The translations under genes and the position numbers were made by a program. 52,622 bases of DNA from a virus. Its lineage: Duplodnaviria; Caudoviricetes. This document shows positions 5,367-52,622 of the stretch, in pieces (the first letter of the stretch is position 1; every line of letters begins with the position of its first letter). The DNA lies in the IMG/VR virus record IMGVR_UViG_3300031949_000053, positions 1 to 52,622 of that record; one strand, given 5' to 3'. The notes under the pieces are model-generated. The model saw only the letters and a list, made by a program, of their open reading frames with translations. It ran no database searches and was not told where the DNA came from.

Positions 5367-7160
5367 ATGCCGTGGGCTGATGGCGACCGGCTGAACTCGA
5401 CCAATCTGAACGCCAGGTTCCCCTCGTCCTTGGCGTTCAATGTCAAGGACGCCGCTTACGGGGCGGTGGGCGACGGGGCAACCGACGACATCTCCGCCAT
5501 TCAAACCGCGTGTACGGCGGCGAGTACGGCGGGGGGCGGAACAGTGTTCGTGCCCAAGGGCACTTACCTGCTCGGCCCTTCCGACGGGTCCGCTCCCGCC
5601 TCGGCCGGTGACTATTCCATCAAGCTTGACGACAACGTTACCCTGTGGTTGGATGATGCGGCTGTCCTTGTCCGGCGGTTTGCTTCGACCGACAAGGAAA
5701 ACGCGACGATCCGCAACGATGACATGGTGAACGGAAACACCAACGTCGTTGTCCGGGGTGGAAAAATCGAGACGCAGGCGGTGGCGAACACCGGGATGCA
5801 CATTTGTTTCTCGGCCGTGTCCGGCGGGCGCATCGAATCGGTCTGGGCGGTTGATGCCGAAAGCGCGTGGAACGTGTACCTGCGAGACTGTACCGACATC
5901 AGCGTGATTGGGCTGCGCGTCACGGAAAGCGATGAGACAACCGAGGACGGATTGCACATCGGCGGCGGGTCCCGTATCGTGGTCACGGGATGCGACATCC
6001 GTGCCGGGGACGACGCTATCGGCATTGTCCAAGAATCCTCGTTCGCGACGACGGATACGACCGACGTGGTCATTGCCAATTGCCACCTCGAAAGCGCGAC
6101 GGCGTCGGCCCTGAAGTTGGACTGCAAGGACAACATGACCCCGTCGAATCGCGCGATTCGACGGGTGGCAGTGAACAACTGTACCATGAAGTCCGGTGGT
6201 TCGGGGGTGGTCATTCGCGACCAGAACCACCTGTATCTCGTTTCCGATGTCGTGGTGAATGGCGTTGTGATGGACGGCTCGTCACTGACCGGCGAACTGC
6301 CGCTCGCCGTCGGCGTGGCGCGGGTCCAGGTGAGCGATTTCCTCCTGCGGCAACCACTGAGTTTCATTCAGGCCGATTGGGCAACGGACGTGGTATTTCG
6401 GAACATCTCGGTGTCCAGCGTTCGGTCCACGACGCAACCGGCGTTCAAGATGGGAACGTCAGGGGCGAACACTCGGCTGATGCTGGACGGGGTGGTATGC
6501 ACCGATGCCCACATTCGCGTGGAGAACACGACCGACCTGACACTGCAAAGTTGCTCGGTGGTAAGCGTACAGGCGGCCCTCACCCCGGCCCTTAGTATCG
6601 GGTCGAGCAACGCCTGTGCCAACGTGCGGATTCTGGGCGGCGTTTATAAGGGCGCAACGGGGGATGGCATACTCCTGGGGACGACGGGCACCGTGACGGA
6701 CGCCCTAGTTCAAGGCGCCTATGTGAGCACATCCGCGTGGAACGGGATTGCGGTAGCCAAGGCCATCGGCTGCGTGGTCGAAGGGTGTCGTATTCTCAGT
6801 GCAACAAGCTCCGGTGTCGAGGTGCTGTCTGGATGTCAGGCGGTCAGCCTCATCGGCAATGACGTGCGCGGGAACACGACCAGTGCCATCAGCGACGCGG
6901 GAACCGGCACGTTCCGCAAGGGCAACCGCACCAACAGCGCTACGGGAAAGATTGCGGGTCGTGCCGTCCTGTCGTCGGGGAACACAACCGTCGCAACCGG
7001 CGAAGCGCTCTCCGGCGACAACATCATTCTCTCGCGGGTTGTTTCTGGCGGTACGCACGGGATACTGAGCGTGGCGACCATCGTGGCGAGCATGTCGTTC
7101 CAGATTGACTCGACCCAAACGACGGACACTTCGACCATTTACTACGAGATCGTGCATTGA
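5367..7160 (+). CDS. Tailspike, right-handed beta-helix (pectate lyase/GH28-like depolymerase)
   Basis: FNVKDAAYGAVGDGATDDISAIQ...GGTVFVPKGTY start, DGLHI and GDDAI motifs, parallel beta-helix repeats. Confidence 0.88.
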   Translation: MPWADGDRLNSTNLNARFPSSLAFNVKDAAYGAVGDGATDDISAIQTACTAASTAGGGTVFVPKGTYLLGPSDGSAPASAGDYSIKLDDNVTLWLDDAAVLVRRFASTDKENATIRNDDMVNGNTNVVVRGGKIETQAVANTGMHICFSAVSGGRIESVWAVDAESAWNVYLRDCTDISVIGLRVTESDETTEDGLHIGGGSRIVVTGCDIRAGDDAIGIVQESSFATTDTTDVVIANCHLESATASALKLDCKDNMTPSNRAIRRVAVNNCTMKSGGSGVVIRDQNHLYLVSDVVVNGVVMDGSSLTGELPLAVGVARVQVSDFLLRQPLSFIQADWATDVVFRNISVSSVRSTTQPAFKMGTSGANTRLMLDGVVCTDAHIRVENTTDLTLQSCSVVSVQAALTPALSIGSSNACANVRILGGVYKGATGDGILLGTTGTVTDALVQGAYVSTSAWNGIAVAKAIGCVVEGCRILSATSSGVEVLSGCQAVSLIGNDVRGNTTSAISDAGTGTFRKGNRTNSATGKIAGRAVLSSGNTTVATGEALSGDNIILSRVVSGGTHGILSVATIVASMSFQIDSTQTTDTSTIYYEIVH

Positions 7161-7381: not shown

Positions 7382-7406
7382 CGGTGTCGTGACAGTGTTG
7401 CAAGTT
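7378..7406 (+). promoter_or_regulatory. Sigma70-like promoter with TGTCGTGACA palindrome in its spacer
   Basis: TTGACG-N17-CAAGTT; near-identical element at 13687. Confidence 0.65.
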
Positions 7407-7416
7407 GCCGCTGTGT

Positions 7417-9291
7417 ATGGAACCCTTTGCCACAGCGATTCTCTGCCGGAACGAGAAAGACCGATACCTCCCGCACGTGCTCGACTATCACGGCCAGTGG
7501 GGGCCAATCGTCGTCTTGGACGATGGGAGCACCGATGGCACCTATGAGCTTTGCCGAGCGCACCCGGCTGTGGCGATTTGTGAACGCCGTACAGGCACGG
7601 AAGCATGGGGTGCCGAAGCCCCCGCCCGCGCCCGTCTCTGGCACCTCGCCTCCGCTGCTGCTGAGTGGGTATTGGTCACAGACGCCGATCAGGTTTTGTC
7701 TGCTGACCCCCGACCGCTGTGCCAAGCCCTAAATGTCAACGCCTGGTCGTTCCCGCTCTACGATCTCTGGGACGATGACCACTACCGGGCCGACGCCTTC
7801 TGGCGCGGACACGAGTTTCCCCGGCCGTGGCTCTTTCGCCCGCTCCACGTCCCGCCAGGGTACGTGCCCGAGTGGCCGACTCGTGGCATCCATTGCGGCC
7901 ACGCCCCTGCCAACTTCCCGCTGGTGGCAGGCATTGCGCCGCCGGAGTATTACTGGCTCCACTACGGGTACGCCGACCCCGTGGACCGTGACCACAAACT
8001 CGCACGTTACAGGAGCCAGTACCATCAGATGACCGAGTTCGAGCAGGCCCACGCCGAGTCCATCGCGGACCCCAATCCCTCGCTCCGCATCCTGCCGTTC
8101 GCCCGGAAGGTGAAGGTGCTCGTCGGGGCACCCGTCAGGAAGCGGGCCGAAATCCTCAAGGTGCATCTCGCCAGTCTCGCCGCACAGGAACGCCCTTCCA
8201 GAGTCGCGTTCACCTACGCCTTCGTAGACGACTACCCGGAGTCCAACGACGGCTCGACGGTGCTCGCGGACTTCGTGGCGGAACACGGGGGGCAGGTGTT
8301 CAAGTCGCAGGAGACCCGCAGCGACGACTTCTCCGACTCCCATCCCGTGACCCACCAGTGGACCGAATCGGCCATGAGCCGGGTGGGGCGCATCAAGAAC
8401 GGGCTGCTCAAGCAGACGCTCGACGGCGGGTACGACTATCTCTGGCTGGTGGACTCCGATCTCATCCTCGACCCGACGACGTTCGCGAGTCTCTACGGGT
8501 GCAAGCGGGGGATCGTGAGCGCCGTCTACTGGACGCGCTGGAACGCCTCGCCGGAGATTCACGCCGCCCCCCAGGTGTGGCAGGCGCCGGTCTACCAGTT
8601 GGGACTTCCCCACTATCCCGAACACGAGTTCCGGGCCGACCTCGCCGCACGGGAACTGGTCAAGGTCGGTGGACTGGGGGCGTGTACGCTCATTGAGCGC
8701 AGCGTCATCGAGAAGGGGATTCACTTCGGGAAGCCGCCGGGCTTCCCCTCGGGTGGGCTGTGGGATGGCGAGGACCGGCACTTCTGCGAGTGGGCGCGAC
8801 GGCTGCATGTGGACCTATGGGCGGATGCGTGGCCCGACATCTTCCACGTCTACCACGACCGGGACATGGAACGGCTCCCCGCGATGCAGGCCCGGCTGTC
8901 GCAATCCCATCCCACGACTCCCGCGCTCGGGAACCTCGTGAGTCTGCGGTTGCAGAACGTCGAGGACGGGGTGGGGCCGCTGTGGATTCGGTGCAAGCTG
9001 GGGGACGGGACACTGCTACCCGAAGTCGAGAACCAGGTGCTCGCCATGAAGCGCGGCGACACGAACATCGTGCGGGTGCATTTCCCGGTGACGATGCCGA
9101 CGGTCAACACCCAGCGGGGCGTGCTGAGCCTTGGCGGGAGCGTGAAGCTCCTGCAAGTCGAGCTGCTGGACTGCAAACCCATGAGCATCGCCCCCGTACT
9201 GGCGGACGAGTTCCATGCGACGCCCGAGGGGCTGACACAGGATGCGACGATGCTGACGCCGGAACAGGCCAAGACGTTCGGGGCCGTATGA
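7417..9291 (+). CDS. Tandem GT2 glycosyltransferase with C-terminal trigger-factor-like FKBP domain
   Basis: First GT-A domain: LDDGSTDGT and TDAD. Second: VDD, LVDSD, GGLGACTLI and GED. C-terminus: LGDGTLLPEVENQVLAMKRGDTNIVRVHFP. Confidence 0.85.
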   Translation: MEPFATAILCRNEKDRYLPHVLDYHGQWGPIVVLDDGSTDGTYELCRAHPAVAICERRTGTEAWGAEAPARARLWHLASAAAEWVLVTDADQVLSADPRPLCQALNVNAWSFPLYDLWDDDHYRADAFWRGHEFPRPWLFRPLHVPPGYVPEWPTRGIHCGHAPANFPLVAGIAPPEYYWLHYGYADPVDRDHKLARYRSQYHQMTEFEQAHAESIADPNPSLRILPFARKVKVLVGAPVRKRAEILKVHLASLAAQERPSRVAFTYAFVDDYPESNDGSTVLADFVAEHGGQVFKSQETRSDDFSDSHPVTHQWTESAMSRVGRIKNGLLKQTLDGGYDYLWLVDSDLILDPTTFASLYGCKRGIVSAVYWTRWNASPEIHAAPQVWQAPVYQLGLPHYPEHEFRADLAARELVKVGGLGACTLIERSVIEKGIHFGKPPGFPSGGLWDGEDRHFCEWARRLHVDLWADAWPDIFHVYHDRDMERLPAMQARLSQSHPTTPALGNLVSLRLQNVEDGVGPLWIRCKLGDGTLLPEVENQVLAMKRGDTNIVRVHFPVTMPTVNTQRGVLSLGGSVKLLQVELLDCKPMSIAPVLADEFHATPEGLTQDATMLTPEQAKTFGAV

Positions 9292-37818: not shown

Positions 37819-38648
37819 GGCAGGTCTCGGATAGCGGGAAGCGAGGGACGCCAGGTCACGGGGTCCACAGATTCAACGCGCCCGTCCGCGATGCTCACGA
37901 GCGCACCCCCCATCGCGGCCCGTGATTCGGGGGCCACGCGATGCGCAAAGGCGGTCTTGAGTTGCCACGCGGGGAGCTGCAAGACGGGGACGCCGCCCAT
38001 CCCGACGCCGGAGTAGCCGTAGACGTGCCGGTCAGCGCGGATGGCGAGGGAGGGGAGCGGGTCCCCGGCTTCCAGGCACTCAATGTACATCTGCATGGAG
38101 AGGGTTTGGAGCGCGGAGCCACGAGTCCAGGGGCGGGAACCCGACCGGCCGTGATGCTGTGCATCAACCAGACAGCCTCCGACGTTGAGCCGTAGGTGCC
38201 ACGTAGACCATTCCTGCGAGGTCTCGCCCCGATCGGCGTTCACGGAGCGCGCGAGGGCGTTTTCTGACGCGCCTTCGGGGCCGACGTGCGTTTCCGTTCC
38301 CCGCACGATGTAGATGCGGTGGGGTTGGGCGGTCTCTTTGACGTGGCCGAGGACACGATGCGCGATGTACGATTGATGTTCAGGGTTGCGGGATACGATT
38401 TGACTGGTGCCGTGGTGGTCGCCGTCGGTGAGGTCGCCGACAAACAGGGCGATCAACTTGCGGCGTTCTTTCGTAGCGCGCTGTCTAGCGAGTGCCCAAA
38501 ACTCGGCCCATCGCTCCCACTGCCAGAGTTGGACCTTGGAGGGGTGGTACTTGGCGCCGGTATCAAACTCGACGCCTTCGGGTGGGCAGAGGCCGAGAAT
38601 GGAGCCGCAATGCGTGTCCGAGACAGCGGCGAGGAGGTAGCGGCTCAT
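37815..38648 (-). CDS. Calcineurin-like metallophosphoesterase
   Basis: SDTHCG, GDLTDGDH, RGTETH, QHHG and ADRH motifs. Confidence 0.8.
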   Translation of the reverse strand: MSRYLLAAVSDTHCGSILGLCPPEGVEFDTGAKYHPSKVQLWQWERWAEFWALARQRATKERRKLIALFVGDLTDGDHHGTSQIVSRNPEHQSYIAHRVLGHVKETAQPHRIYIVRGTETHVGPEGASENALARSVNADRGETSQEWSTWHLRLNVGGCLVDAQHHGRSGSRPWTRGSALQTLSMQMYIECLEAGDPLPSLAIRADRHVYGYSGVGMGGVPVLQLPAWQLKTAFAHRVAPESRAAMGGALVSIADGRVESVDPVTWRPSLPAIRDLP

Positions 38649-39196
38649 GCGCGCACCTGATAGCCCCTGCGGGGTTGGGGGACACCAGCCGTGCCCCAGA
38701 GGCGCCGGGTGAGGTCGCGGTAGGGCATAGAGTGGGCCGCTACGGTTCCCTTGGGCGGGTCGAGATAGCCGCGCAGGCCGACGGCCTTCCCGCTGTAGTC
38801 TCGCGTCGTCCGGTCGGGATGTATCAAGGTGAAGATTTCCCCGGCGGTCGGGGTGTAGCCGTGCTCGAAGATGAAGTCCCGGATCAGCCATACGCAGAGT
38901 CGGAAGCGCCAGGAATTGCGGTTGAGGCGCCGGGTCACGCGGCGCTCGGTCGTCAGCCCGGTTGCCTTGAGCAGTTCGGGGGGCGGGTCCACGAGCGATG
39001 TATGCTTGCCGTAGTGGCGTGCGGTGTATCCGGCGCGAGCGACGATCTGTCGCACTCGTTCGCGGGAGAGCCCCACCGCGTCCCCAATCTCTTGGAGGGT
39101 GCAACCGCTTTGATAGAGTCCCACCAACTCGGCCTCGCGCTGGAGATTGCGAGACGAGAACGGGCGGGGCGACGGGATTGGCGCGCACAAAGTCAT
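38645..39196 (-). CDS. Sigma70 region-4-type HTH protein
   Basis: TLQEIGDAVGLSRERVRQI; second LexA-like segment EHGYTPTAGEI. Confidence 0.75.
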   Translation of the reverse strand: MTLCAPIPSPRPFSSRNLQREAELVGLYQSGCTLQEIGDAVGLSRERVRQIVARAGYTARHYGKHTSLVDPPPELLKATGLTTERRVTRRLNRNSWRFRLCVWLIRDFIFEHGYTPTAGEIFTLIHPDRTTRDYSGKAVGLRGYLDPPKGTVAAHSMPYRDLTRRLWGTAGVPQPRRGYQVRA

Positions 39197-39203
39197 GTCC
39201 CCC

Positions 39204-39231
39204 AACGTACACAGTGGGCGTTGGCTGTCAA
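39204..39231 (-). promoter_or_regulatory. Leftward promoter TTGACA-N16-TACGTT (probably leaderless mRNA)
   Basis: The -10 element ends 7 nt before ATG 39196. Confidence 0.6.
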
Positions 39232-39486
39232 GAGTGGGGGTTGTCAATACGGGTGTATGGACAGGCGGGCGCCCCGTCGTGGGGACCGGGGCGCGGTGAT
39301 GAGAGGGCGAGGAGCCGGGGACGTGGGGGAGCTGAGGCAGAAAACTTAATTGTGCCAGCCCTAATCTCCGTGGCCCCCTCTCATCACCGCGCGTTTGCAA
39401 AGCCTTTCGACAAGTGACGGCGACAATTATCGCCGGTAGTCGAGGCCCTTGGGCACGCCAGGCGCTTCGGCACTGGTACAGTTTGA

Positions 39487-40284
39487 CTAGACGGGTGGCG
39501 CCGTGGGGGCTGGGCCGGTGGGCGTCTGTCCGAAGTCCGCGCGCCAAGCCTGGAGGGCGCGCCCGGCACCCTCAACGGCATTCTCATGGACTAAGCGTTC
39601 ACCGGGGGTCATTTCAACGGCCTTCCAGCCACCGTTCTTGAGCAGGCTCACAATCTGGATACTCCCCCCAATCCCACCCGATGGGTTGATTTCGATCACA
39701 TGCTTGAGGGTCCAGAAGGCGCTGAATTGGGCGTCAGCTACAGACGGGAGTTTCTTGGCGGGCCAGAGAGTGTCACGAATGAAGGCCAGGAACGGCTCCG
39801 CATCGCGCTGGCCGCTGCCAATGGCGACGAATGGCAAGTCGGCGGATGCGTACTCTACTGCACACGTTTCGAGTATCTGGAGCAGGCACGGCTGGTCTTG
39901 AAGGGGCATCGCGATCAAAGCGTTGGGGAGCGCGTACCCTACGACACCCTGATTGTGCGTTAGGTTGTAGACTGCCTGGGACATCTCAAGCTCTGCCTTG
40001 CAGACGGGGACGATCTTCTCCCTGATGTTCGACGCCATCGTCTCGGGCTTGGCACCTCTCAACTGCAATTGGTCCTTACAGGCGCCTTCGATGAGCGGCT
40101 TGAGGCGTTGGGAAAGCCCAACGAAGCCTGCGAAGCCCACAATCATCTTGTCGTGGTGGATGCTGAGCTTGTGGGCCGTTCGCTGGGCTGCGGTGTGACC
40201 CGCACCCGCATTGCCCATTGTCGCCTGTGAATCGGCGGCGAGGACGACGCCATTCTCGCACAGGATGCCGATGATGAGCGTCAT
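39487..40284 (-). CDS. Proteasome beta-subunit-like Ntn protease
   Basis: M-T1-LIIGILCENGVVLAADSQAT, conserved Lys (HKL), GFAG, AIGSG and GIGGSIQI motifs. Confidence 0.85.
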   Translation of the reverse strand: MTLIIGILCENGVVLAADSQATMGNAGAGHTAAQRTAHKLSIHHDKMIVGFAGFVGLSQRLKPLIEGACKDQLQLRGAKPETMASNIREKIVPVCKAELEMSQAVYNLTHNQGVVGYALPNALIAMPLQDQPCLLQILETCAVEYASADLPFVAIGSGQRDAEPFLAFIRDTLWPAKKLPSVADAQFSAFWTLKHVIEINPSGGIGGSIQIVSLLKNGGWKAVEMTPGERLVHENAVEGAGRALQAWRADFGQTPTGPAPTAPPV

Positions 40285-40286
40285 CT

Positions 40287-40736
40287 CTAGTCCTGGAAGA
40301 CGCTGTTCTTGCGCATCTCCGGGAATGCCTCGTATACGGCGCGTACCAGTTCGTTGAACGAGAGCTTCTGAGCCCAAGGCACGGCCTGACCGAGATACTC
40401 GACCCCTTCGCGTGGCAGGGCTTTCGCGAGTTTCTCCGCCTCTCTCCTGCCGGCGTCGGTAAGGTGATATGTGCGCCGACTTCGGCCCCAGGATGCGTCA
40501 AGCTCCACCAACCCGGCTGCAATTGCCGCATCCGCGTCGTCATAGACATTGCGGGAAAACGGCCCGTAGTTGTATGCGTCAAAGGAGTAGAAGCTCCTGC
40601 CAACCGCTTTGGCCCGGCGCTCCCCGAGAAGGAACATCACTTTCTGAAGCTGAACGGCGTTCAGGCCCGCATCTCCAGCCTTCAGTAGTGCGACCAGAAT
40701 CCAGTCTCGCGGCATCGTCTTGGCGGCCTGGGTCAT
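40287..40736 (-). CDS. Panacea/SocA (DUF4065/YwgA-like) antitoxin-type protein
   Basis: QLQKVMFL...YSFDAYNYGPFS...YHLTDAG...ELVRAVYEAFPEM. Confidence 0.8.
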   Translation of the reverse strand: MTQAAKTMPRDWILVALLKAGDAGLNAVQLQKVMFLLGERRAKAVGRSFYSFDAYNYGPFSRNVYDDADAAIAAGLVELDASWGRSRRTYHLTDAGRREAEKLAKALPREGVEYLGQAVPWAQKLSFNELVRAVYEAFPEMRKNSVFQD

Positions 40737-40879
40737 TCCTACCTTCCCTTCTGCTCTGCCGTGGCAACTTCCCGCGCGATAAGGAGGGACACGACTTCCG
40801 AGATGGTCCACACATGGTCAGCAACGCCTGCCGCCATCGCAGGCGTAGTATGCACCCAGGCGGGGCCGCAACGCAAGAA

Positions 40880-40924
40880 ACCGGCGGTTCAGGGGCATCC
40901 CGCGAAGGTGCCTGAACCGCCGGT
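40880..40924. repeat. Perfect 14-bp inverted repeat (hairpin) upstream of the Panacea/protease operon
   Basis: accggcggttcagg-N17-cctgaaccgccggt. Confidence 0.7.
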
Positions 40925-41138
40925 AAACCCCCAACAGGCGCAGTAGCGCCAGCCGAGGTGGTACATGGCAAAAGTAACTAGGCTGTAAAGAGCGTGGAGC
41001 GGCGGCGTCCCGTGAGCACACCGGGACGCCGTCGTGCGTCTACCCCTTCTTCCAGCGCACACAGCGTAGGGCGATGATCTTGGGCGTCTTCCGGGCATCG
41101 TCGGGTCGCATTTGTGGCAGCCCCCTCCCTTTCCCGTC

Positions 41139-41166
41139 AATTTATACCGTTATCGTTGCACGTCAA
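41139..41166 (-). promoter_or_regulatory. Leftward promoter TTGACG-N16-TAAATT
   Basis: Consensus-like hexamers; CGATAACG in spacer. Confidence 0.65.
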
Positions 41167-41227
41167 TAGGCGGGAGCCCCCGCTAACGGCTCGGGGGCTC
41201 GGGGGGCTGCGGCGAGGTGAGGCGGGG

Positions 41228-41641
41228 TCAGTCGGTGGCGGCCCGGTAGGTGGATTCGATCACGCCGCACTCGTCGAAGTCCGCGAAGATGTCGCAGAGG
41301 AGCGCGAAGTCCCGGCCCGTGCGCAGGGTGATGCGTGCCCCGTCCCACCAGTCGAGGAACCAATACTCAATCCGGACGGGCTTGCGGTTCTCGTCACAGT
41401 AGAACCGGAACTCATCCGCCGGGCCACCACAGGAGAGCTGGTATCGCCAGTAGCCGCGCCGGTTCTGGAAGGTGCCGGGGGCGACGTAGTCGAAGGACAA
41501 TCCGTACTCGTTGAAGGTGCCAATCTCGGGGTCGCCGGACTCGTTGCCGGACTGCCAGAGGGCGAACAGCTTGCGGAGGTCGGAGACGCGGCCCCGGTAG
41601 TGCTCGCGGATGCGGTCCTTGCAGGTGGGTTGCGTGGTCAT
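41228..41641 (-). CDS. Hypothetical early protein
   Basis: GGAGG RBS; YQLSCGGPADEFRF...YWFLDWWDGA; followed by hairpin gagcccc/gggggctc. Confidence 0.65.
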   Translation of the reverse strand: MTTQPTCKDRIREHYRGRVSDLRKLFALWQSGNESGDPEIGTFNEYGLSFDYVAPGTFQNRRGYWRYQLSCGGPADEFRFYCDENRKPVRIEYWFLDWWDGARITLRTGRDFALLCDIFADFDECGVIESTYRAATD

Positions 41642-41697
41642 GGTGCAGCCTCCGTCGGAGAAGCTAGGCCGGTCATCGGGGCCGGTACCGTAGAGCC

Positions 41698-41725
41698 AAG
41701 TTAACGCTATCCTACAGTGCATCAA
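41698..41725 (-). promoter_or_regulatory. Leftward promoter TTGATG-N16-TAACTT
   Basis: Same architecture as the other leftward promoters; contains GCGTTAAC. Confidence 0.55.
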
Positions 41726-41762
41726 TCCGTATTTCTACGGACGAACGGACACCGAAAAGCGG

Positions 41763-42760
41763 TTATCTGCGCGCACGGGTGCGCAGGGGAAGCCATTCGC
41801 GGCACTCGCCCCACGCCTTGGCGTAGTCCGGGCTCCCGTCGTGAAGCCAGCGCGAAGCGAAGACGCGGGCGCGATCCTGCTTACCGGCGATCCCCTTCAG
41901 GGTATCGAAGCGGTAGGGCAGGTGCGCGAAGGGGTTGGCCAGGATTTCGGCGTCCCGCTTCCGGTAGCGCTCCCATTCGACGGCGAAGGGCTCGCAAGCG
42001 GTGGGGTCGCCGCCCGGCTTGGCGGGGATGTGCGTTGTACCCCCGAACAGGGACGGGACTTCGATCACGGGCATGGCTACATCCCCTTTCTGAGGGACAG
42101 AGCCAGCCGTTCGGCGTACAGGGCTGGCGGGGGGAGGACGCCAACGAACGAGCCCGCACCGATAACCGCGCGATCTCCGGTTGGGGAGTGCTCGGCGTCG
42201 GGCGGGCTCCACCAGTAGGCGAACACGGCGTAGGCCGCGTGATATAGTTCCTCGCCCATCGTGACGGACAGGTCGGGGCGCGTCATGACACCCTCCGGAC
42301 CGATGTCCATAGGAGCACCATCCCGCACTCGCAGGGTAGGCGGTTGTCCGGTTCTTCGGCGCGACGTTCGGCCTCTTCGCGGGACGTGGCGAGCACGTCA
42401 CAGGGCGGGGTGGCGGGAACGCCAAGGGCGGCGTCTGGGTTGGACCGGGCAAAGATGACGTGGAAGCGCTTGCGGCGCTTGGGGGCAACGGGACAGGGCG
42501 CGCACATCACGTTAGCCCTCCAGATTGGCGAGGATGGCGCGGGCGGCGAGCATGGCCGCGTCGTACGTCTCCGGGGTGTCGGCGCTCACGATGCCCCGCA
42601 GGACGTCGGCCAACGCCGGGGCCAGGGCGATCAGCCGCGCGTTGGCGGCAGATTCACCGGCCTTACGGCCGAGGCGACGGGCGAGGCGCAGCATGTCACG
42701 GGTACGCATGTGGATAACCTCTTTCGGGTAAGGTTCACACTCACCGGAGACAGGGACCAA
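41763..42760 (-). CDS. Run of small early hypothetical genes (e.g. 42512-42709, 42283-42510, 42077-42286, 41763-42074)
   Basis: Short coupled ORFs with GGAG-type RBS downstream of the 42786 promoter. Confidence 0.45.
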
Positions 42761-43536: not shown

Positions 43537-44550
43537 TTAGGTCAGGAGCCTTGTGATTCTGGGGGCGGTGTGCCCGTCGCCGAAGATGGTGGAGGGGGCG
43601 GGATGGAAGAATTGGGCGTAGCGGAACATCTCGGGGAGCCGGGCGCCGTCGCGGCCGACGAGGATGCTGTGGGTGGCACAGGCTTCGGGTCGTTCGGTCT
43701 TGTTCCGGGCGATGAGGCAGGGGATACCGAGGGTGGTGGCTTCTTCGACCACACCGCCGGAGTCGGTGATGACGAGGTGCGCGCCACACAGGGCCTTCAG
43801 GAACTCCGGGTAGGCGAGGGGTGAGGTGAAGAGGAGGTTGCCCGGAGCCTTCAGGGCGCGGATGGTATCGAGGACGTGGGGGTTCGGGTGGAACGGCCAC
43901 AGGAACGGGGTGTCGGGATGGGTTTCGGCGAGCTGGGCGATGCGATTGGCGCATGCCTGCATGTCCGCCCCGAAGGATTCCCGGCGGTGCAGGGTGATGA
44001 GGACGTGGGTAGGGGTGGTCTTCACAGCGCCCATGAGCCGCAGGGCGTCCGTGATGGGGTTGCCGGTGACAAATGCGTCGTTCTGGAGCCCGTCGCGGGT
44101 CAAATTGTCCAGATTGAGGGCCGTGGGGCAGCATTTGAGCTGTGCGCGGCGGTCAATCTCGACACGGAACCCTTCTTCGGGCCACGGATCGGTCGGATCG
44201 TGGCTCCTGAGCCCGGCTTCGAGGTGGCAGAGGGGGATACCGAGGCTTTCGGCGAGCCTACACCCTGCCAAGGCACTCCCGGTGTCGCCTTGGACGACGA
44301 TCCAGTCGGGCTTGGGTTGGTTTTGGGCCCATTCCTGGAGTTTCTGGGCGGCGTGGGTGACGTAGACATAGGGATCGTCGCAGCCGGGGACGCCGAGGTT
44401 GACATCGGCAGTCAGCGGCATGCCATCAGCGAGGGAGGTGTGCTGGCCGGTCGAAACGACGGTCACATCCCGCTGTTCCACGTGCAACTGCTGGATGACC
44501 GGGAACGCCTTGATGAACTCGGGCCGTGTGCCAAGGATGTACCAGATCAT
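43537..44550 (-). CDS. wecB: UDP-N-acetylglucosamine 2-epimerase
   Basis: GTRPEFIK, TGQH, VQGDT, HLEAGLRS, WPEE, TLHRRE and TDSGGVVEEA motifs. Confidence 0.93.
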   Translation of the reverse strand: MIWYILGTRPEFIKAFPVIQQLHVEQRDVTVVSTGQHTSLADGMPLTADVNLGVPGCDDPYVYVTHAAQKLQEWAQNQPKPDWIVVQGDTGSALAGCRLAESLGIPLCHLEAGLRSHDPTDPWPEEGFRVEIDRRAQLKCCPTALNLDNLTRDGLQNDAFVTGNPITDALRLMGAVKTTPTHVLITLHRRESFGADMQACANRIAQLAETHPDTPFLWPFHPNPHVLDTIRALKAPGNLLFTSPLAYPEFLKALCGAHLVITDSGGVVEEATTLGIPCLIARNKTERPEACATHSILVGRDGARLPEMFRYAQFFHPAPSTIFGDGHTAPRITRLLT

Positions 44551-44795
44551 GCGTGTACCCTGCACTATGGTCGTTGTTTTGTCCATTCCCCGCACAGGTA
44601 GTCCCAGTCACAGACCGGGAGCAGGGCGAGGGAATTAACGAACGGCACCCCGTAGGGAGTGGGCGGATAGCGACAACAGGTGCCCTGCGTGGATGTCACG
44701 GAGCGATGGGGCGCGCAGGAGGAACAGATCGAGACCATGTTGCCTCCTCTCGCGTGAAGTCTACCCGTTTGCGTGGATGTTGTGTAGGTTCGGTC

Positions 44796-45353: not shown

Positions 45354-46143
45354 ACTTCGCGGCTCATACGCGCGTTATGGGCGCGAGTGGGCACAACGGG
45401 CGGTGCTTCTCGGCATCGCTGGTTCACACGCGCACGGTACACATGTGCCCCCAGACGAAGAACACGGTACCGACGATACCGATGTGGTGGCGGTGTTTGT
45501 GCATCCGATGGGCCACTACCTCGGCGTTTCGGGCTACAATCGGTATCAGGACGGATTCGACACCAACGGCCAGCACGTAGACATCTGCGCCTATGACGTG
45601 CCGAAGTTCGTTTCGTTGCTCGGCAAGGGGAATCCGAACGTCCACTTCTGGCTCTGGCAGCCCGACGACCTACCGTTGCTGTTGGATGAGGGCGGACAAC
45701 TCCTCGTTGCCGCGCGGGAACGGCTGCTCTCGCAGGCGATGTTCCCGGCGCTGATGGGGTATGCGGTTGCGCAACTCAAGAAGATGCGCCAGGGCCACAC
45801 GATGGGTTACATGGGGGCGAAGCGCAAGGAACTCCTTCGGGAGTACGGCTACGACATCAAGGATGCCGCCCACTGTTTGCGGCTCCTGCACGTCGGGCGC
45901 GTTCTCGCGGCCGAAGGTCGGTTGATGGTACGGTTGGAGGGCGACATCCTTGCTGACGTATTGGCGGTCAAGACGGGCAAGCGGTCGCTCCGCGAGGTTG
46001 AGGCGGCGGCAGAGAAGTTGTTCGCTGAGTTCGCTGACCATCGGAGTCGCACGGCGCTCCGCGAACGGGTGCCCGTCGAGGAACTGGACGCGCTTTCAGC
46101 GGCCGTGATTCACGCAAGTTGGGGACAGGGGACGGTTAGTTGA
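45340..46143 (+). CDS. Pol-beta-superfamily nucleotidyltransferase (RlaP/YcgL-like)
   Basis: GSHAHGT...DDTDVVAVF, KGNPN and GYDIKDAAHCLRLL motifs. Confidence 0.85.
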   Translation: MDAVELRGSYARYGREWAQRAVLLGIAGSHAHGTHVPPDEEHGTDDTDVVAVFVHPMGHYLGVSGYNRYQDGFDTNGQHVDICAYDVPKFVSLLGKGNPNVHFWLWQPDDLPLLLDEGGQLLVAARERLLSQAMFPALMGYAVAQLKKMRQGHTMGYMGAKRKELLREYGYDIKDAAHCLRLLHVGRVLAAEGRLMVRLEGDILADVLAVKTGKRSLREVEAAAEKLFAEFADHRSRTALRERVPVEELDALSAAVIHASWGQGTVS

Positions 46144-47819
46144 CCGAACTCACGCTGAAACAGGGCTCGCGCGAGTGGCAGGACATCCGCACCCGCGCAT
46201 TGAACGACCTGTTCTTCTTCACGGATACGATTCTCGGCTACGGCCCCCTCGTCCCGATGACGTTGCGCGCCCATTACCTCATGTGCCGCTTCGCCGAGCA
46301 GCAGACCGGGATTCCCGACCTCGACAACGCCTGGGTGCGGCTCATCAAGGTGCCCCGTGGCGTGGGCAAGAGCACCATCATCACGCAGGGCTTCATGCTC
46401 CAACGCGCGCTCAAGTATCCCGACATCGCGATGCTGGTGGTGAACGAGACCGAGCGGGGCGCGACGAAGTTCCTCGCCGCCATCAAGAACCAGATCATGG
46501 ACAACCAACTCCTGCGCGCCCTCTTCCCCGAACGCTGTCCGAGCGATCCGGAGAAGGAGTGCGCGAAGTGGTCGGAAAGTGAGATCATCCTGCCCGGCCG
46601 GACAGCGGGACGGAAGGAATCCACGATTCAGGCCATCGGCGTCGGCGGCTCTATCACGGGCCTGCACCCGGACCTCGCGGTGATTGACGACATGATCTCG
46701 GATGAAGCGGCGGAGAACGCGCGGGCCGGGCTGTTCTCTACGATGGAGAAGACGAACCGCTGGATCAGCCGCTTGCGGCCCATTGTGAACACGGGCCAGC
46801 CGCATTTCGGCCTGGTATGGGTCGGAACTCCTTGGTGGGAAGACGACTCGTACACCTACGTCGAGAAAGCCTTCGGCTACGGCGACCGGAAAACGCAGTA
46901 CATCCTGAAGCACGAAACCCCGAGCGGGAGGGTGCAAGTCCCGGCGTACCGGACGGGGGACATCGCGGTCTTTGCACGTCCGATTCTGGAGGACGGGACG
47001 AGCTGGTTCCCGGAACGCTGGCCGGACGAGAAACTGGCGAAGATGCGGGTGGATGACCCGCTCCTGTTCGCGGCGAACATGATGCTCGACCCGCGCGCCC
47101 CCGAGATCACGACGTTCAAGCCCGAGTGGCGACGCTATTACACCTGGGCCAACGGCACGACGTTGCAGTACCGGGACCATGCGCTGAAGGACTGCATCGC
47201 CACGGTAGATGACTTGAACGTCATTGTGAGCGTGGACCCCGCGTTCTCCGAGGTCGGCAGGCCGCAGGACGCCCGACAGGCCATCATCGCCACGGGCGGG
47301 ACGGAGGAAGGGTACCGGATGTTGCTGCGGGCCAAGGTCACGCGCCAGACCTTGGATGGGTTCATCGCGGACATCGTGGAGACGTGCAAGACGTTCAAAG
47401 CGAAGAAACTGCGGCTGGAGAAGGCGGGCCAGCAGGCCGCGTTCAACCAGCAGGTGCGCCGGGCGCTGAACGACGCGAACATCATGGTCAGCGTGCTAGA
47501 GGAAACGACCGGCTCCAAGAACAAGGACGTGCGCATCGAGGCGTTGAGTCCCTACTTCGAGCGTGGCATGGTGTACGGGGACCGCAACCAGCACGATTTC
47601 TGGCGTGAATACGACACGTTCCCCCGTGGGAAGCTCAAGGACTTGCTGGATGCGCTGAGCGCGCAGATCACCCATTGGCAGTCGGGACAGGTGGGGAGCG
47701 CGGTCGGGAACAAGCGGGTGCAACAGGAGCTGGATGCGCTGTATGCGCGCATGGGCGTCCCGGCTCCGGCAGGGAGCGCGAAGGACTGGCGCACCCGTGT
47801 AGACGGGAGTCGGCGCTAG
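46140..47819 (+). CDS. terL: Terminase large subunit
   Basis: Walker A PRGVGKST; ITGLHPDLAVIDD; VGTPW; nuclease SVDPA and DLLDAL. Confidence 0.93.
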   Translation: MTELTLKQGSREWQDIRTRALNDLFFFTDTILGYGPLVPMTLRAHYLMCRFAEQQTGIPDLDNAWVRLIKVPRGVGKSTIITQGFMLQRALKYPDIAMLVVNETERGATKFLAAIKNQIMDNQLLRALFPERCPSDPEKECAKWSESEIILPGRTAGRKESTIQAIGVGGSITGLHPDLAVIDDMISDEAAENARAGLFSTMEKTNRWISRLRPIVNTGQPHFGLVWVGTPWWEDDSYTYVEKAFGYGDRKTQYILKHETPSGRVQVPAYRTGDIAVFARPILEDGTSWFPERWPDEKLAKMRVDDPLLFAANMMLDPRAPEITTFKPEWRRYYTWANGTTLQYRDHALKDCIATVDDLNVIVSVDPAFSEVGRPQDARQAIIATGGTEEGYRMLLRAKVTRQTLDGFIADIVETCKTFKAKKLRLEKAGQQAAFNQQVRRALNDANIMVSVLEETTGSKNKDVRIEALSPYFERGMVYGDRNQHDFWREYDTFPRGKLKDLLDALSAQITHWQSGQVGSAVGNKRVQQELDALYARMGVPAPAGSAKDWRTRVDGSRR

Positions 47820-50776: not shown

Positions 50777-52612
50777 ATGCCGGAAGCCTGTCAGTTCGGC
50801 GGTGAGCAGGAGCAGGCGTTCGTGAGTTACATCACGACCGCCATGCAGACCGCACTGGCCGAACGGAGCACCCTAGAGACGAAGTGGCGCGACTGGCTGG
50901 AGGACTATCGGTCCCCCATGCCGACGGCCACCAAGCGCTTCCCCTACGAGGGTGCCAGCGACTACACCCTGCCTTTCGGCGCGATGACGGTGGACCCGCT
51001 GGTGGCGCGGTTCGTCACCACGCTCCACGCTCCGGCTAACATGTGGACGCTTCAGCCACTCAACGAGCGCTGGGTGCCCATCGCGAAGCCGATGCAGGAC
51101 TACCTCCAGTTCCTCGACCAGACGCGCCTCAAGCTGTTCGACGTGAACTACCGGGCCATCCTCGAACTGGTCAAACTCGGGACGACCATCTACAAGCACG
51201 GCTGGACCTACGAACGGCGCCGGGTGAACACCTACGATCCCGCGACGGGCCAGGTGCGCCCGGAGATGCGGGCCATCGGCGGGCCGTTCGTGGATCATGT
51301 CTCGCTGGTGGATTTCCTCATCCCGTCGGACAGCTACGAGATTCAGCCGGACGTGCAGGGCGGGGCGCCGTGGATCGCGGAGCAGTTCACGCTGACCAAG
51401 CCGCAGTTCCTCGCGCGCTCGGAAGGCCAGCAGCCGTTTCTGCCCGACTACTATCCCGAGGCCGTGACCAAGGTCAAGGCGTTCGAGGACTCGCATCAGA
51501 GCGCCGGGTCCATCGTGCGGGACAAGAAGTACGCGCTGGACAACTACACCCCGTCCGACCTGCGCAAGATTGAATTGTGGGAAGTGCATGCCCGGTTCGA
51601 TACGCAGGGCAACGGGAGCGTGGACGACGTAGTGGCGGTGATTCACCTGCCGAGCCGCACGCTCCTGCGAGCCATCTACAACCCCTACGCGCACAACGCC
51701 CGCCCGTACTCGGTCGCGCGCTACATGCGGGGCGACGGGTTCTACGGCATCGGCGTGTGCGAGCAGGCGGAGATGCCGCAGTCCGTGCTGTCCGAGCTGC
51801 TGAACGCGAACATTGACAACGTGCGCCTCGCCAACGCCCCGATGATTGCCGTGAAGCCGGGGGCGAACGTGGTGCCGGGCGAGCCCATCTACCTCCTCAA
51901 GATGTGGTCACTCGAAAACCCAGCGACCGACATCAAGGAGATCAAGTTCACGACCCCGTACCCCTCCATGCAGATGTTGGGGCCGCTGATTCAGGACATG
52001 GGCGAGCGGCGGACAGGGCTCTCGGACATCCAGCGCGGCAACGCGCAGGGGCTCCCCTCGCGCACCCCGGCGACCTCCATGCTCAGTCTGTTGCAGGAAG
52101 GCAATCGTCGGTTCGACCTGACGCTCAAGGACCTCCGGTACTGTCTGGACGAGGTCGGGAGACGGCTGCTCCAGAACCTCCAGCAGTTCATGTCCAACCC
52201 GGTGCAGAACCCGGATGCCGGGATGCAACTGGAAATGGCCATCATGGCGCTCGGGGAGCCGGAAGGGTCCTACGTCGCGCGCACGCTGGCGTTGCCGATT
52301 GATGACGTGGCGAGCGGACTCGGCGTCACGATCACGGCGACTTCGGGCAGCACGAACAAGGAACTGGAAAAGCAGTCCTTCATGGGCCTACTCCAGCTCC
52401 AGTCCCAGATGTTTGTGCCGCTCTATCTCCAGTTGGCCCAGATTCTCGGCAATCCGCAGATTCAGTTGATTGCTCCGGCCGTGGTACAGACGGCGTCCGA
52501 CCTGTTCAAGGGGACACGCGAACTTCAACAGAGGCTCTATGAGCAATTCGACATCCGGAACCCGGAAGACGTTCTGGTCAACGCTGCGGTCATCCTTGAG
52601 ACGGCTGCGCGC
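50777..52612 (+). CDS. Portal protein (continues to position 249)
   Basis: GGAGG RBS; FYGIGVCE...NIDNVRLANAP...ERRTGLSDIQRG podovirus portal motifs. Confidence 0.88.
52487..52612. repeat. Terminal direct repeat, right copy
   Basis: Identical to 1-126; the final 10 nt (tgatatccat) diverge. Confidence 0.97.
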
Positions 52613-52622
52613 TGATATCCAT

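Follow-up and report, generated by a model that had tools for sequence, protein, structure and literature searches.

A recurrent pairing of a Panacea-resembling winged-helix protein with a proteasome-type hydrolase in a tailed-virus record and in bacteria

What is a protease of the proteasome family doing in the genome of a tailed virus, directly behind a small gene that recalls known antitoxins? The question is raised by two genes, here called A and B, on the minus strand of the Caudoviricetes record IMGVR_UViG_3300031949_000053 of IMG/VR, the whole of which (52,622 nucleotides, hereafter the window) was analysed. A preliminary description, made from the letters alone, had taken A for a Panacea/SocA-like antitoxin and B for a protease of the proteasome-beta type, and had proposed a new toxin–antitoxin (TA), defence or targeted-proteolysis system. 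The arrangement proved to be beyond chance, the same pair being present in dozens of unrelated genomes. The conserved unit, the identity of the protease and the antitoxin-like fold of its partner have stood up, whereas membership of A in Panacea, a role for the leader and a specificity for phages have not. The pair is discussed below as a candidate mobile conflict module with a protease as its effector, a reading that is offered tentatively and weighed against three others.

Recurrence and mobility of the pair

Between the stop codon of A (TAG, 40289-40287) and the start codon of B (an ATG, at 40284) there is a gap of 2 nt, and the two genes make up, as had been suspected, a real and self-contained unit. 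B-seeded pattern scans gave 66 non-self loci—2 viral and 64 from genomes, repeats and near-identical genomes (L008/9, L014/28, L016/17/19, L041/42 and L023/24, the L numbers denoting loci) being included—and in 54 of them (55 of 67 with the window counted) B is directly preceded by a homologue of A on the same strand. The titles of the records name at least 14 phyla. From the stop of A to the start of B the junction measures -4 to +25 nt in 51 of the 54 loci, the other three (L023, L055 and L057) being damaged or rearranged. The pairwise identities of A and of B correlate with each other (r = 0.61, compared with a maximum of 0.21 in 500 permutations), shared ancestry contributing to this value. 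When the open reading frames (ORFs) within 5 kb of B were clustered in search of another conserved gene or of an ATPase as partner, only antisense shadows of B and a synteny block from Gemmatimonadota came out, hence neither an HslU-type ATPase nor any other conserved companion. With its tight two-gene operon, its patchy and mobile distribution and the lack of a third conserved gene, the pair is organised as a type II TA system.

An A-seeded scan of viral contigs gave 23 loci, in 11 of which B follows directly, whereas two run into a contig edge (L068 and L082) and ten have no B; the viral records that carry the pair number 12, including the window. The preliminary description had staked its reading on conservation of the pair elsewhere, and conserved it is, in the bacterial as well as the viral loci. 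It is, however, not specifically a phage device, as had also been supposed, most copies being found in bacterial chromosomes and insertion sequences. Searches of 50,697 cultured-phage records at the DNA and protein levels returned nothing resembling either the region or B. Of 151 genomes sampled from one class (G numbers), seven have A-like genes, three have B-like genes (E <= 1e-15) and only two have close pairs (G005 and G064); two further A-like genes (G124 and G063) precede more divergent Thr1 proteasome-like genes, and one is a fusion of the type of PDC-M19A, a candidate defence protein of PADLOC described below. Weak A-like matches were also seen in G031 and G041, and a fragment of B in G131.

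The 12 B-seeded loci without A consist of one truncated B (L067) and 11 members of a Ser1 sub-branch (L040, L045, L051, L052, L054, L056, L058, L059, L060, L063 and L064), mostly from Gemmatimonadota, the proteins of which are of ~290 aa and begin with MSLIVG. Beside these genes lies a divergently transcribed gene for a protein of 257-360 aa with a coiled coil and a winged-helix-like C-terminal end; it was considered as a distant A, which the profile comparison did not support (hhalign 21%, 18 columns).

The pair is a mobile unit. A 2385-bp repeat with 99.9% identity in an Acidobacteriota metagenome-assembled genome (MAG; L008:5451-7835 and L009:5451-7835) consists of A, B and a convergent transposase of the IS1595 family, and a transposase of this family, with a zinc ribbon and an ISXO2-like DDE domain, is located downstream of B also in L014, L028 and L053. 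The A–B–transposase unit looks like an insertion sequence with passenger genes. A Latescibacterota MAG contains a pair-bearing repeat of at least 6.7 kb in three copies. The surroundings vary: when, on either side, the closest ORF with a length of at least 100 aa (92 of 181 candidates, from crude longest-ORF calling) was scanned with Pfam and PADLOC, the 92 immediate neighbours fell into 85 Pfam families, none of them seen more than three times, those seen three times including the IS1595 transposase and a phage integrase.

Several copies are disrupted. In L023 (4534-6000) an IS256-like transposase of 452 aa lies between A and B and has removed the first codons of B, the sister locus L024 being intact; in L028 (6597-8433), counted among the 51, an antisense reverse transcriptase of the group-II-intron type (449 aa) interrupts B, again with an intact sister (L014); and in L057 a frameshift has left B in two frames. 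The locus L055 (3311-4393), from a Chloroflexota MAG, is of another kind, A having no C-terminal helices and running in frame, with no stop, into B, inside which the contig ends; it is either a natural A–B fusion or a deletion or assembly artefact.

In viral loci A also stands by itself (L071, L076-78 and L085) or with an extra C-terminal part (L074), at the positions given in Table 1. Five of the viral records with an orphan A were checked throughout and gave no B, though only one of them (L085) is complete. These phages with A but not B suggest a use in counter-defence.

The two proteins and their relatives

B had been recognised as a proteasome-type N-terminal nucleophile (Ntn) hydrolase in which the catalytic set is intact and a threonine directly follows the methionine, and Pfam, fold and residue conservation all agree. 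It passes the Pfam model Proteasome (PF00227) with 35 bits at a cut-off of 22.4, over residues 4-72 only. In the family profile, its Thr2, Asp18, Lys39, Gly53 and G156-S157-G158 align with Thr1, Asp17, Lys33, Gly47 and Gly128-Ser129-Gly130 of solved beta subunits. The motifs listed in the preliminary description are all present: B starts with MTLIIG and has D18, K39 and G156-S157-G158, and A has VQLQKVMF and YNYGPFS. The structure model of B, with a predicted local distance difference test (pLDDT) value of 93, has the proteasome fold. Among ~48,000 representative chains its best match is Anbu 5loy_A (Z 20.6, root-mean-square deviation (rmsd) 2.9, 212 residues aligned, covering B residues 2-255 with the long C-terminal helix), followed by 20S subunits (Z 19-20, tied with Anbu within one Z unit), HslV (17.5), BPH (15.5) and connectase (13); Foldseek agrees.

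Out of 1.84 billion representatives, 822 belong to the family of B at E <= 1e-3, and 506 still do so at E <= 1e-10. In the best 150 of the 822, position 2 is occupied by threonine in 134 and by serine in four, the N-terminus being missing in 12, and the equivalents of Asp17, Lys33 and Gly47 are kept in 147, 149 and 149, those of the G-S-G motif in 150, 132 and 144, respectively. With the catalytic set kept across the family, its members are enzymes under selection. The same alignments indicate that the nucleophile would be exposed by removal of the methionine alone, with no propeptide.

With Anbu, 20S beta subunits, HslV and BPH, B has the fold and the catalytic residues in common; with HslV and Anbu it shares the exposure of Thr1 by methionine removal alone, and with Anbu the long C-terminal helix. 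It differs from all of them in its low identity (15-23%), its elongated H2 of 30 residues, an additional helix that follows H1/H2 and a conserved winged-helix partner, to which a Pro-rich tail after the long C-terminal helix may be added. Scores of 21-22 bits against the NCBIfam HslV models, with cut-offs of 137-158, place it outside HslVU. The Anbu operon contains transglutaminase-like, ATP-grasp-type and Alpha-E genes; none of them recurs beside B in the A–B loci, although in fold Anbu is still the closest relative, tied with 20S.

A survey of proteasome homologues (Fuchs, Alva and Lupas 2021, PMC8665760) described 22 new ones, some of them in phages; among these, PHI and WPH have a long H5 and, behind H1/H2, a long insertion. 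Compared by these descriptions, B is like PHI and WPH in its position near the proteasome and Anbu, in the longer insertion after H1/H2, in the long H5 and in its occurrence in many phyla and in phages, and it may belong to one of the clusters of the survey. According to the survey, neither a genomic context nor a co-occurrence pattern was found for the new homologues; B has a partner in 54 of the 66 loci.

The model of A (pLDDT 91) shows a winged-helix core, interrupted by an insertion that bears the motif, and another three helices at the C-terminus. The family pattern consists of a helix with ..LQK..F.., the motif F.F.PYNYGPF ~20 residues on, and a C-terminal LSF..LV..IY..YP....NSVF, the residues Q31, K32, F35, F52, Y57, G58, P59, G96, F127, L130, Y135, P139, S145 and F147 being invariant. 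In the PanAT systems, a Panacea-domain antitoxin is combined with diverse toxins (Kurata et al. 2022, PMC8832971; Ernits et al. 2023, PMC10440598); the main text of the former describes the domain as a central helix with five others around it and a three-strand sheet, a conserved GPV being located in the small beta-sheet that adjoins the central helix. Judged by that text, A is similar in being small, stand-alone and upstream of a tightly linked partner, in its occurrence in phages and mobile DNA, in its central helix with ..LQK..F.., in the G-P-hydrophobic motif ~20 residues on, and in its six or seven helices with a three-strand sheet. The model of A fits the published layout of central helix, surrounding helices and three-strand sheet, a comparison made with the description, as none of the solved chains listed was named as a Panacea structure. 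Unlike Panacea, A has GPF at the place of GPV, a conservative variant with G58 and P59 invariant and F60 kept in at least 90% of the family, and it misses the cut-off of the Panacea model PF13274. No proteasome, HslV or Ntn partner is mentioned in the main text of either PanAT paper. The preliminary description knew of no characterised system with this pairing, and a literature search covering the main text of mostly open-access papers likewise found none.

The closest solved structure leads in another direction. DarTG is a phage-defence TA system, DarG being its antitoxin. The only near-full-length solved match of A is 7yk3_D, a 187-residue chain from the DarTG complex of M. tuberculosis (Z 11.5, rmsd 4.1, 138 of 149 residues aligned; Foldseek E 5e-4), all the other solved matches covering the winged-helix part only (Z 8-9.6); a chain of LmuC, 9ny5_C, matches with Z 8.2. 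As the DarG profiles match A over DarG positions 162-261, chains B and D of 7yk3 are taken here as the C-terminal, DarT-binding part of DarG. A is unlike DarG in that it has no macrodomain, is only ~14-17% identical and has a protease instead of an ADP-ribosyltransferase as its partner, and it does not qualify as a DarG. The profile of the A family, when run against PDB sequences, matched nothing below E 0.7.

Using PADLOC, all 48 A-family members examined were matched by PDC-M19A and by the C-terminal part of the Type I specificity model, 17 by DarG and four by LmuC. The match with PDC-M19A, confined to its N-terminal 125-130 positions, is the strongest (best E 5.4e-19). A itself covers positions 4-125 of this ~294-residue profile and is therefore not a full-length PDC-M19A, of which, as far as seen, no proteasome-like gene forms a part; a literature search found no paper naming PDC-M19. 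The domain of A thus links the DarG C-terminal domain, PDC-M19A, the Type I specificity appendage and LmuC as one recurrent module, and A is a member of a recurrent, conflict-associated domain class, which probably includes Panacea as well.

Some related proteins were met along the way. One cluster of the Atlas, with a score of 0.96, has PF13274 on 21% of its members, which is a lead only, and a further Atlas lead concerns fusions of the same fold to the UPF0175 and CopG antitoxin families. A full-length PDC-M19A of 293 aa (E 1.1e-78) is encoded in L095 (1558-2439, plus strand), its A-like N-terminal domain being followed by a C-terminal part that is possibly DUF488-like, with an Atlas lead on similar fusions; the flanking ORFs read as methyltransferase-like from their translations. 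In L087 (2914-5289), next to a serine-recombinase-like gene, lies a gene for a remote A-like protein of 196 aa that contains an acidic insertion. Two unrelated ORFs, of 143 and 455 aa and with no PADLOC match, come after it and may represent a different partner set for the domain class of A.

Possible roles of the pair

The preliminary description had called for a docking of the two proteins. The modelled A–B complex, each protein entering with its own alignment, scored 0.54, the best of three controls reaching 0.25, and the runs agree in at least 96% of contacts with a partner pLDDT of at least 85; the verdict of the tool was nevertheless 'weak support', and it gave no interface. In the calibration 58 of 80 solved complexes attained the mark, as did 2 of 110 mismatched pairs; at <=0.60 a pass was obtained by only 7 of the 80 together with both mismatches, and passes in that range are more often wrong than right unless the pairing is already likely.

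It may be, at a likelihood somewhat short of even, that the pair constitutes a mobile conflict module of two genes, of the type II TA or abortive-infection kind, with a protease as effector. This reading is based on the small upstream partner, the tight junction and the lack of a third gene; on the patchy distribution on insertion sequences and phages; on the antitoxin and defence kinship of A together with the intact catalytic set of B; and on the orphan A genes of phages along with a three-to-one excess of broken B over altered A. In the last comparison, B is broken and A intact in three loci (L023, L028 and L057), as against one (L055) with A altered and B apparently whole, numbers that are small and of which L057 could be explained by an error of MAG assembly.

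Such a module could work as follows. A and B would be cotranscribed and probably translationally coupled, and B, on losing its initiator methionine, would expose Thr1 as its N-terminal nucleophile with no propeptide to be removed. A would bind B directly, as the complex model hints, and keep it inactive or restricted. Once A is lost, titrated or triggered—by loss of the element or by phage infection—B would cleave cellular or phage proteins; the ensuing growth stop would stabilise the carrier, be it an insertion sequence or a prophage, or exclude a competing phage. In phages with A alone, A might serve as an orphan antitoxin that counters copies of B in the host. The binding in this scheme is predicted, and the toxicity of B, the trigger, the substrates and the effect on phages are likewise inferred.

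A number of observations weigh against a conflict module. The Panacea model gave A 14.5 bits (E 0.068) at a cut-off of 25.7 and found only one of 48 family members at E <= 0.01; in five pair-carrying genomes it matched no A gene, two other ORFs being matched instead, and in hhalign the profile of A aligned with two true Panacea ORFs at a probability of 0.1-0.2%, single-sequence templates making this a weak test. As the cut-off was failed, 'Panacea/SocA-like' stands for a resemblance in motif arrangement and fold type, not for membership. None of 70 members of the B family is matched by a PADLOC model. An enrichment in defence islands, proposed earlier as a check, was not seen, the 92 immediate neighbours showing no recurrent family and only few, scattered PADLOC matches; many of them are housekeeping or metabolic genes. 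The Ser1 sub-branch lies in conserved chromosomal synteny without A and has a housekeeping look, and in L055 the two genes are joined in one frame. Proteasome-family subunits are, according to the survey, generally active only in assembled complexes (PMC8665760), so that a freely toxic B monomer is not the default expectation. Toxicity, neutralisation and defence are, finally, all inferences.

The main alternative, although unlikely, is that B is a self-compartmentalising or helically assembling protease in the manner of Anbu or HslV, harmless alone, and A its dedicated substrate adaptor or activating cap. SocA is known as a substrate adaptor for ClpXP. The targets would be host defence or regulatory proteins when the pair is borne by a phage, and other ones in bacteria. 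The closest folds of B—Anbu, 20S and HslV—are those of ring- or helix-forming proteases, and the strictly conserved C-terminal ..NSVF.. of A, with S145 and F147 invariant, may act in docking as a peptide. Outside the complex, isolated subunits of the proteasome have no activity, and for the new homologues the survey found no AAA+ partner (PMC8665760), which leaves room for a partner other than an ATPase. The flanks poor in defence genes also favour an adaptor, and the weak support for a complex fits adaptor and antitoxin equally. The patchiness, the carriage by insertion sequences and phages and the repeated copies, on the other hand, are typical of selfish or conflict modules and not of a proteolysis pathway; the profile and fold relatives of A are antitoxin or defence components, and the orphan A genes of phages are hard to explain if A is useful only with B.

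It is improbable that the pair is a repressor–protease switch comparable to ImmR/ImmA, with A as a winged-helix DNA-binding regulator which B cleaves on a signal, turning on the genes of the element. Residues ~5-110 of A do match winged-helix regulators of the MarR/PadR type (Z ~8-9.6), weak Pfam matches to PadR and EarA were obtained, and the leader in the window contains a perfect 14-bp palindrome. The position of A upstream of the protease is likewise that seen in repressor/anti-repressor pairs, the role ascribed to ImmR/ImmA in PMC10440598. The recognition-helix position, however, is acidic in the A family (mean net charge -1.9), the median pI of which is 6.3, and this argues against a plain transcription factor. 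A conserved operator upstream of A was looked for in 49 loci and rejected, palindromes not being enriched there (mean longest arm 6.6, compared with 5.8 in shuffles) and an arm of at least 9 being present in only six. The bacterial pairs are flanked by unrelated genes and have therefore no consistent regulon or element to control, and no tyrosine integrase was found in the window.

That A and B are merely a housekeeping pair and a passenger in phages, with no conflict function, is equally improbable: many flanking genes are metabolic, the Ser1 sub-branch is vertically inherited in Gemmatimonadota and the survey found no functional clue for such homologues (PMC8665760), but of the 151 genomes sampled from one class only 2 contain the close pair, the pair spans at least 14 phyla with variable flanks, it is carried by an IS1595 element and occurs in repeated copies, and 12 viral records, the window among them, contain it.

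Should the conflict module be the correct reading, TA and phage-defence systems would have a new class of effector in the Thr1 Ntn protease, and an 'orphan' bacterial proteasome homologue would have gained its first functional context. Apart from HslV and the 20S core, no bacterial homologue of the proteasome is known to have a function. A homologue with a dedicated, co-inherited partner offers a directly testable hypothesis, i.e. whether the two bind, whether A inhibits or activates B and whether B is toxic or not. It is possible, at somewhat less than even odds, that the pair represents the first TA or abortive-infection family with a proteasome-family N-terminal-threonine protease as effector and a keeper like Panacea and the DarG C-terminal domain, spread by insertion sequences and phages over more than a dozen phyla, with the lone phage-borne antitoxin serving as counter-defence.

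The pair in the virus record

The virus record is complete or nearly so, with a completeness estimate of 98% and no end repeats found. The pair is contained in a block of minus-strand genes that extends from ~24 to ~45 kb of the window, most genes of which have no family match. The features of the window, together with the positions of the orphan A genes in other viral loci, are collected in Table 1.

Table 1 Features of the window and, in the last four lines, positions of A genes without B in other viral loci
Feature	Position	Strand	Remarks
Tail spike	5367-7160	plus	
Sigma70_r4 helix-turn-helix protein	38648-39199	minus	184 aa; E 1.9e-7; directly downstream of B
Gene B	39487-40284	minus	265 aa
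Gene A	40287-40736	minus	149 aa
Leader, non-coding	40737-41138	minus	402 nt; from promoter-like site to gene A
Possible IS1-like transposase C-terminal relic (..TPAMAAGVADHVWTISEVV..)	40742-40888	minus	147 nt; ends 3 nt before A
Inverted repeat 1	40880-40893 / 40911-40924	minus	perfect 14 bp; 17-nt spacer, further pairing in fold
Inverted repeat 2	41000-41034	minus	13-nt arms, 92% complementary; 9-nt loop
Sigma-70-like promoter match	41166->41139	minus	TTGACG-16-TAAATT; 9/12 matches
GC-rich hairpin	41174-41200	minus	9-nt arms, 100% complementary; 9-nt loop; between upstream stop and promoter-like site
UDP-N-acetylglucosamine 2-epimerase-like protein	43540-44595	minus	Pfam E 3.3e-64
Large terminase	46140-47819	plus	
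Portal	50777-52615	plus	
Orphan A, L071	between portal and head-morphogenesis genes		
Fused A, L074	between terminase and portal		
Orphan A, L076-78	near terminase		
Two tandem A-like paralogues, L085	2998-3432, 3726-4229		complete 85.8-kb phage record with inverted terminal repeats

The gene upstream of the pair encodes 165 aa and ends with its stop at 41228, directly before the GC-rich hairpin, which may terminate the upstream transcription unit, a putative role for a hairpin with no T run. With a promoter-like site after this hairpin, just past the upstream gene, it is plausible that A and B are an independent, moron-like transcription unit. The promoter of its own that the preliminary description had assigned to the pair is present as a candidate site only, one such site being seen in the 2.8 kb of 39000-41800 where 0.6 are expected from shuffles, and is therefore not significant by itself.

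The leader of about 400 nt and its perfect 14-bp hairpin, also pointed out earlier, do exist in the window but are not a feature of the module, the other loci having no such leader and the hairpin not being conserved upstream of A there. The run TTTCTT comes after the hairpin on the coding strand and gives it the look of a terminator or attenuator. A structured RNA or riboswitch belonging to the module was rejected, the fold of the whole leader being no better than that of shuffles (z = -0.06) and the Rfam scan of the leader giving no family at threshold.

The relic frame upstream of A was recognised by comparison with a 279-aa ORF that adjoins the pair in the viral locus L002 and matches Pfam DDE_Tnp_IS1. 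In a single BLASTP comparison 14 of 34 residues are identical (E 2e-6), and in a tblastn search with this ORF against the whole window the match, of only 31-34 residues, has E 0.007; on this slender similarity the frame may be a scar left by the arrival of the module. The more AT-rich codons that had been noted are only partly borne out, as a real but mild lowering of the GC content: A has 60.2% and B 61.0%, the 1-kb windows of the record ranging over 59-71%, and GC at third codon positions is 0.72 in A and 0.75 in B compared with 0.87 in the upstream gene, values of 0.72-0.76 being shared by other genes of the window.

Concerning the neighbouring genes, the listed ORF for the Sigma70_r4 protein (38645-39547) overlaps the end of B, its true start being probably further in. 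Other members of the block with a family match are a DUF5131 protein and a DNA methyltransferase. A glycosyltransferase-like match was also seen at 7405-9291 of the window, and it may form, together with the epimerase-like gene, a set for the modification of surface sugars or of DNA with sugars.

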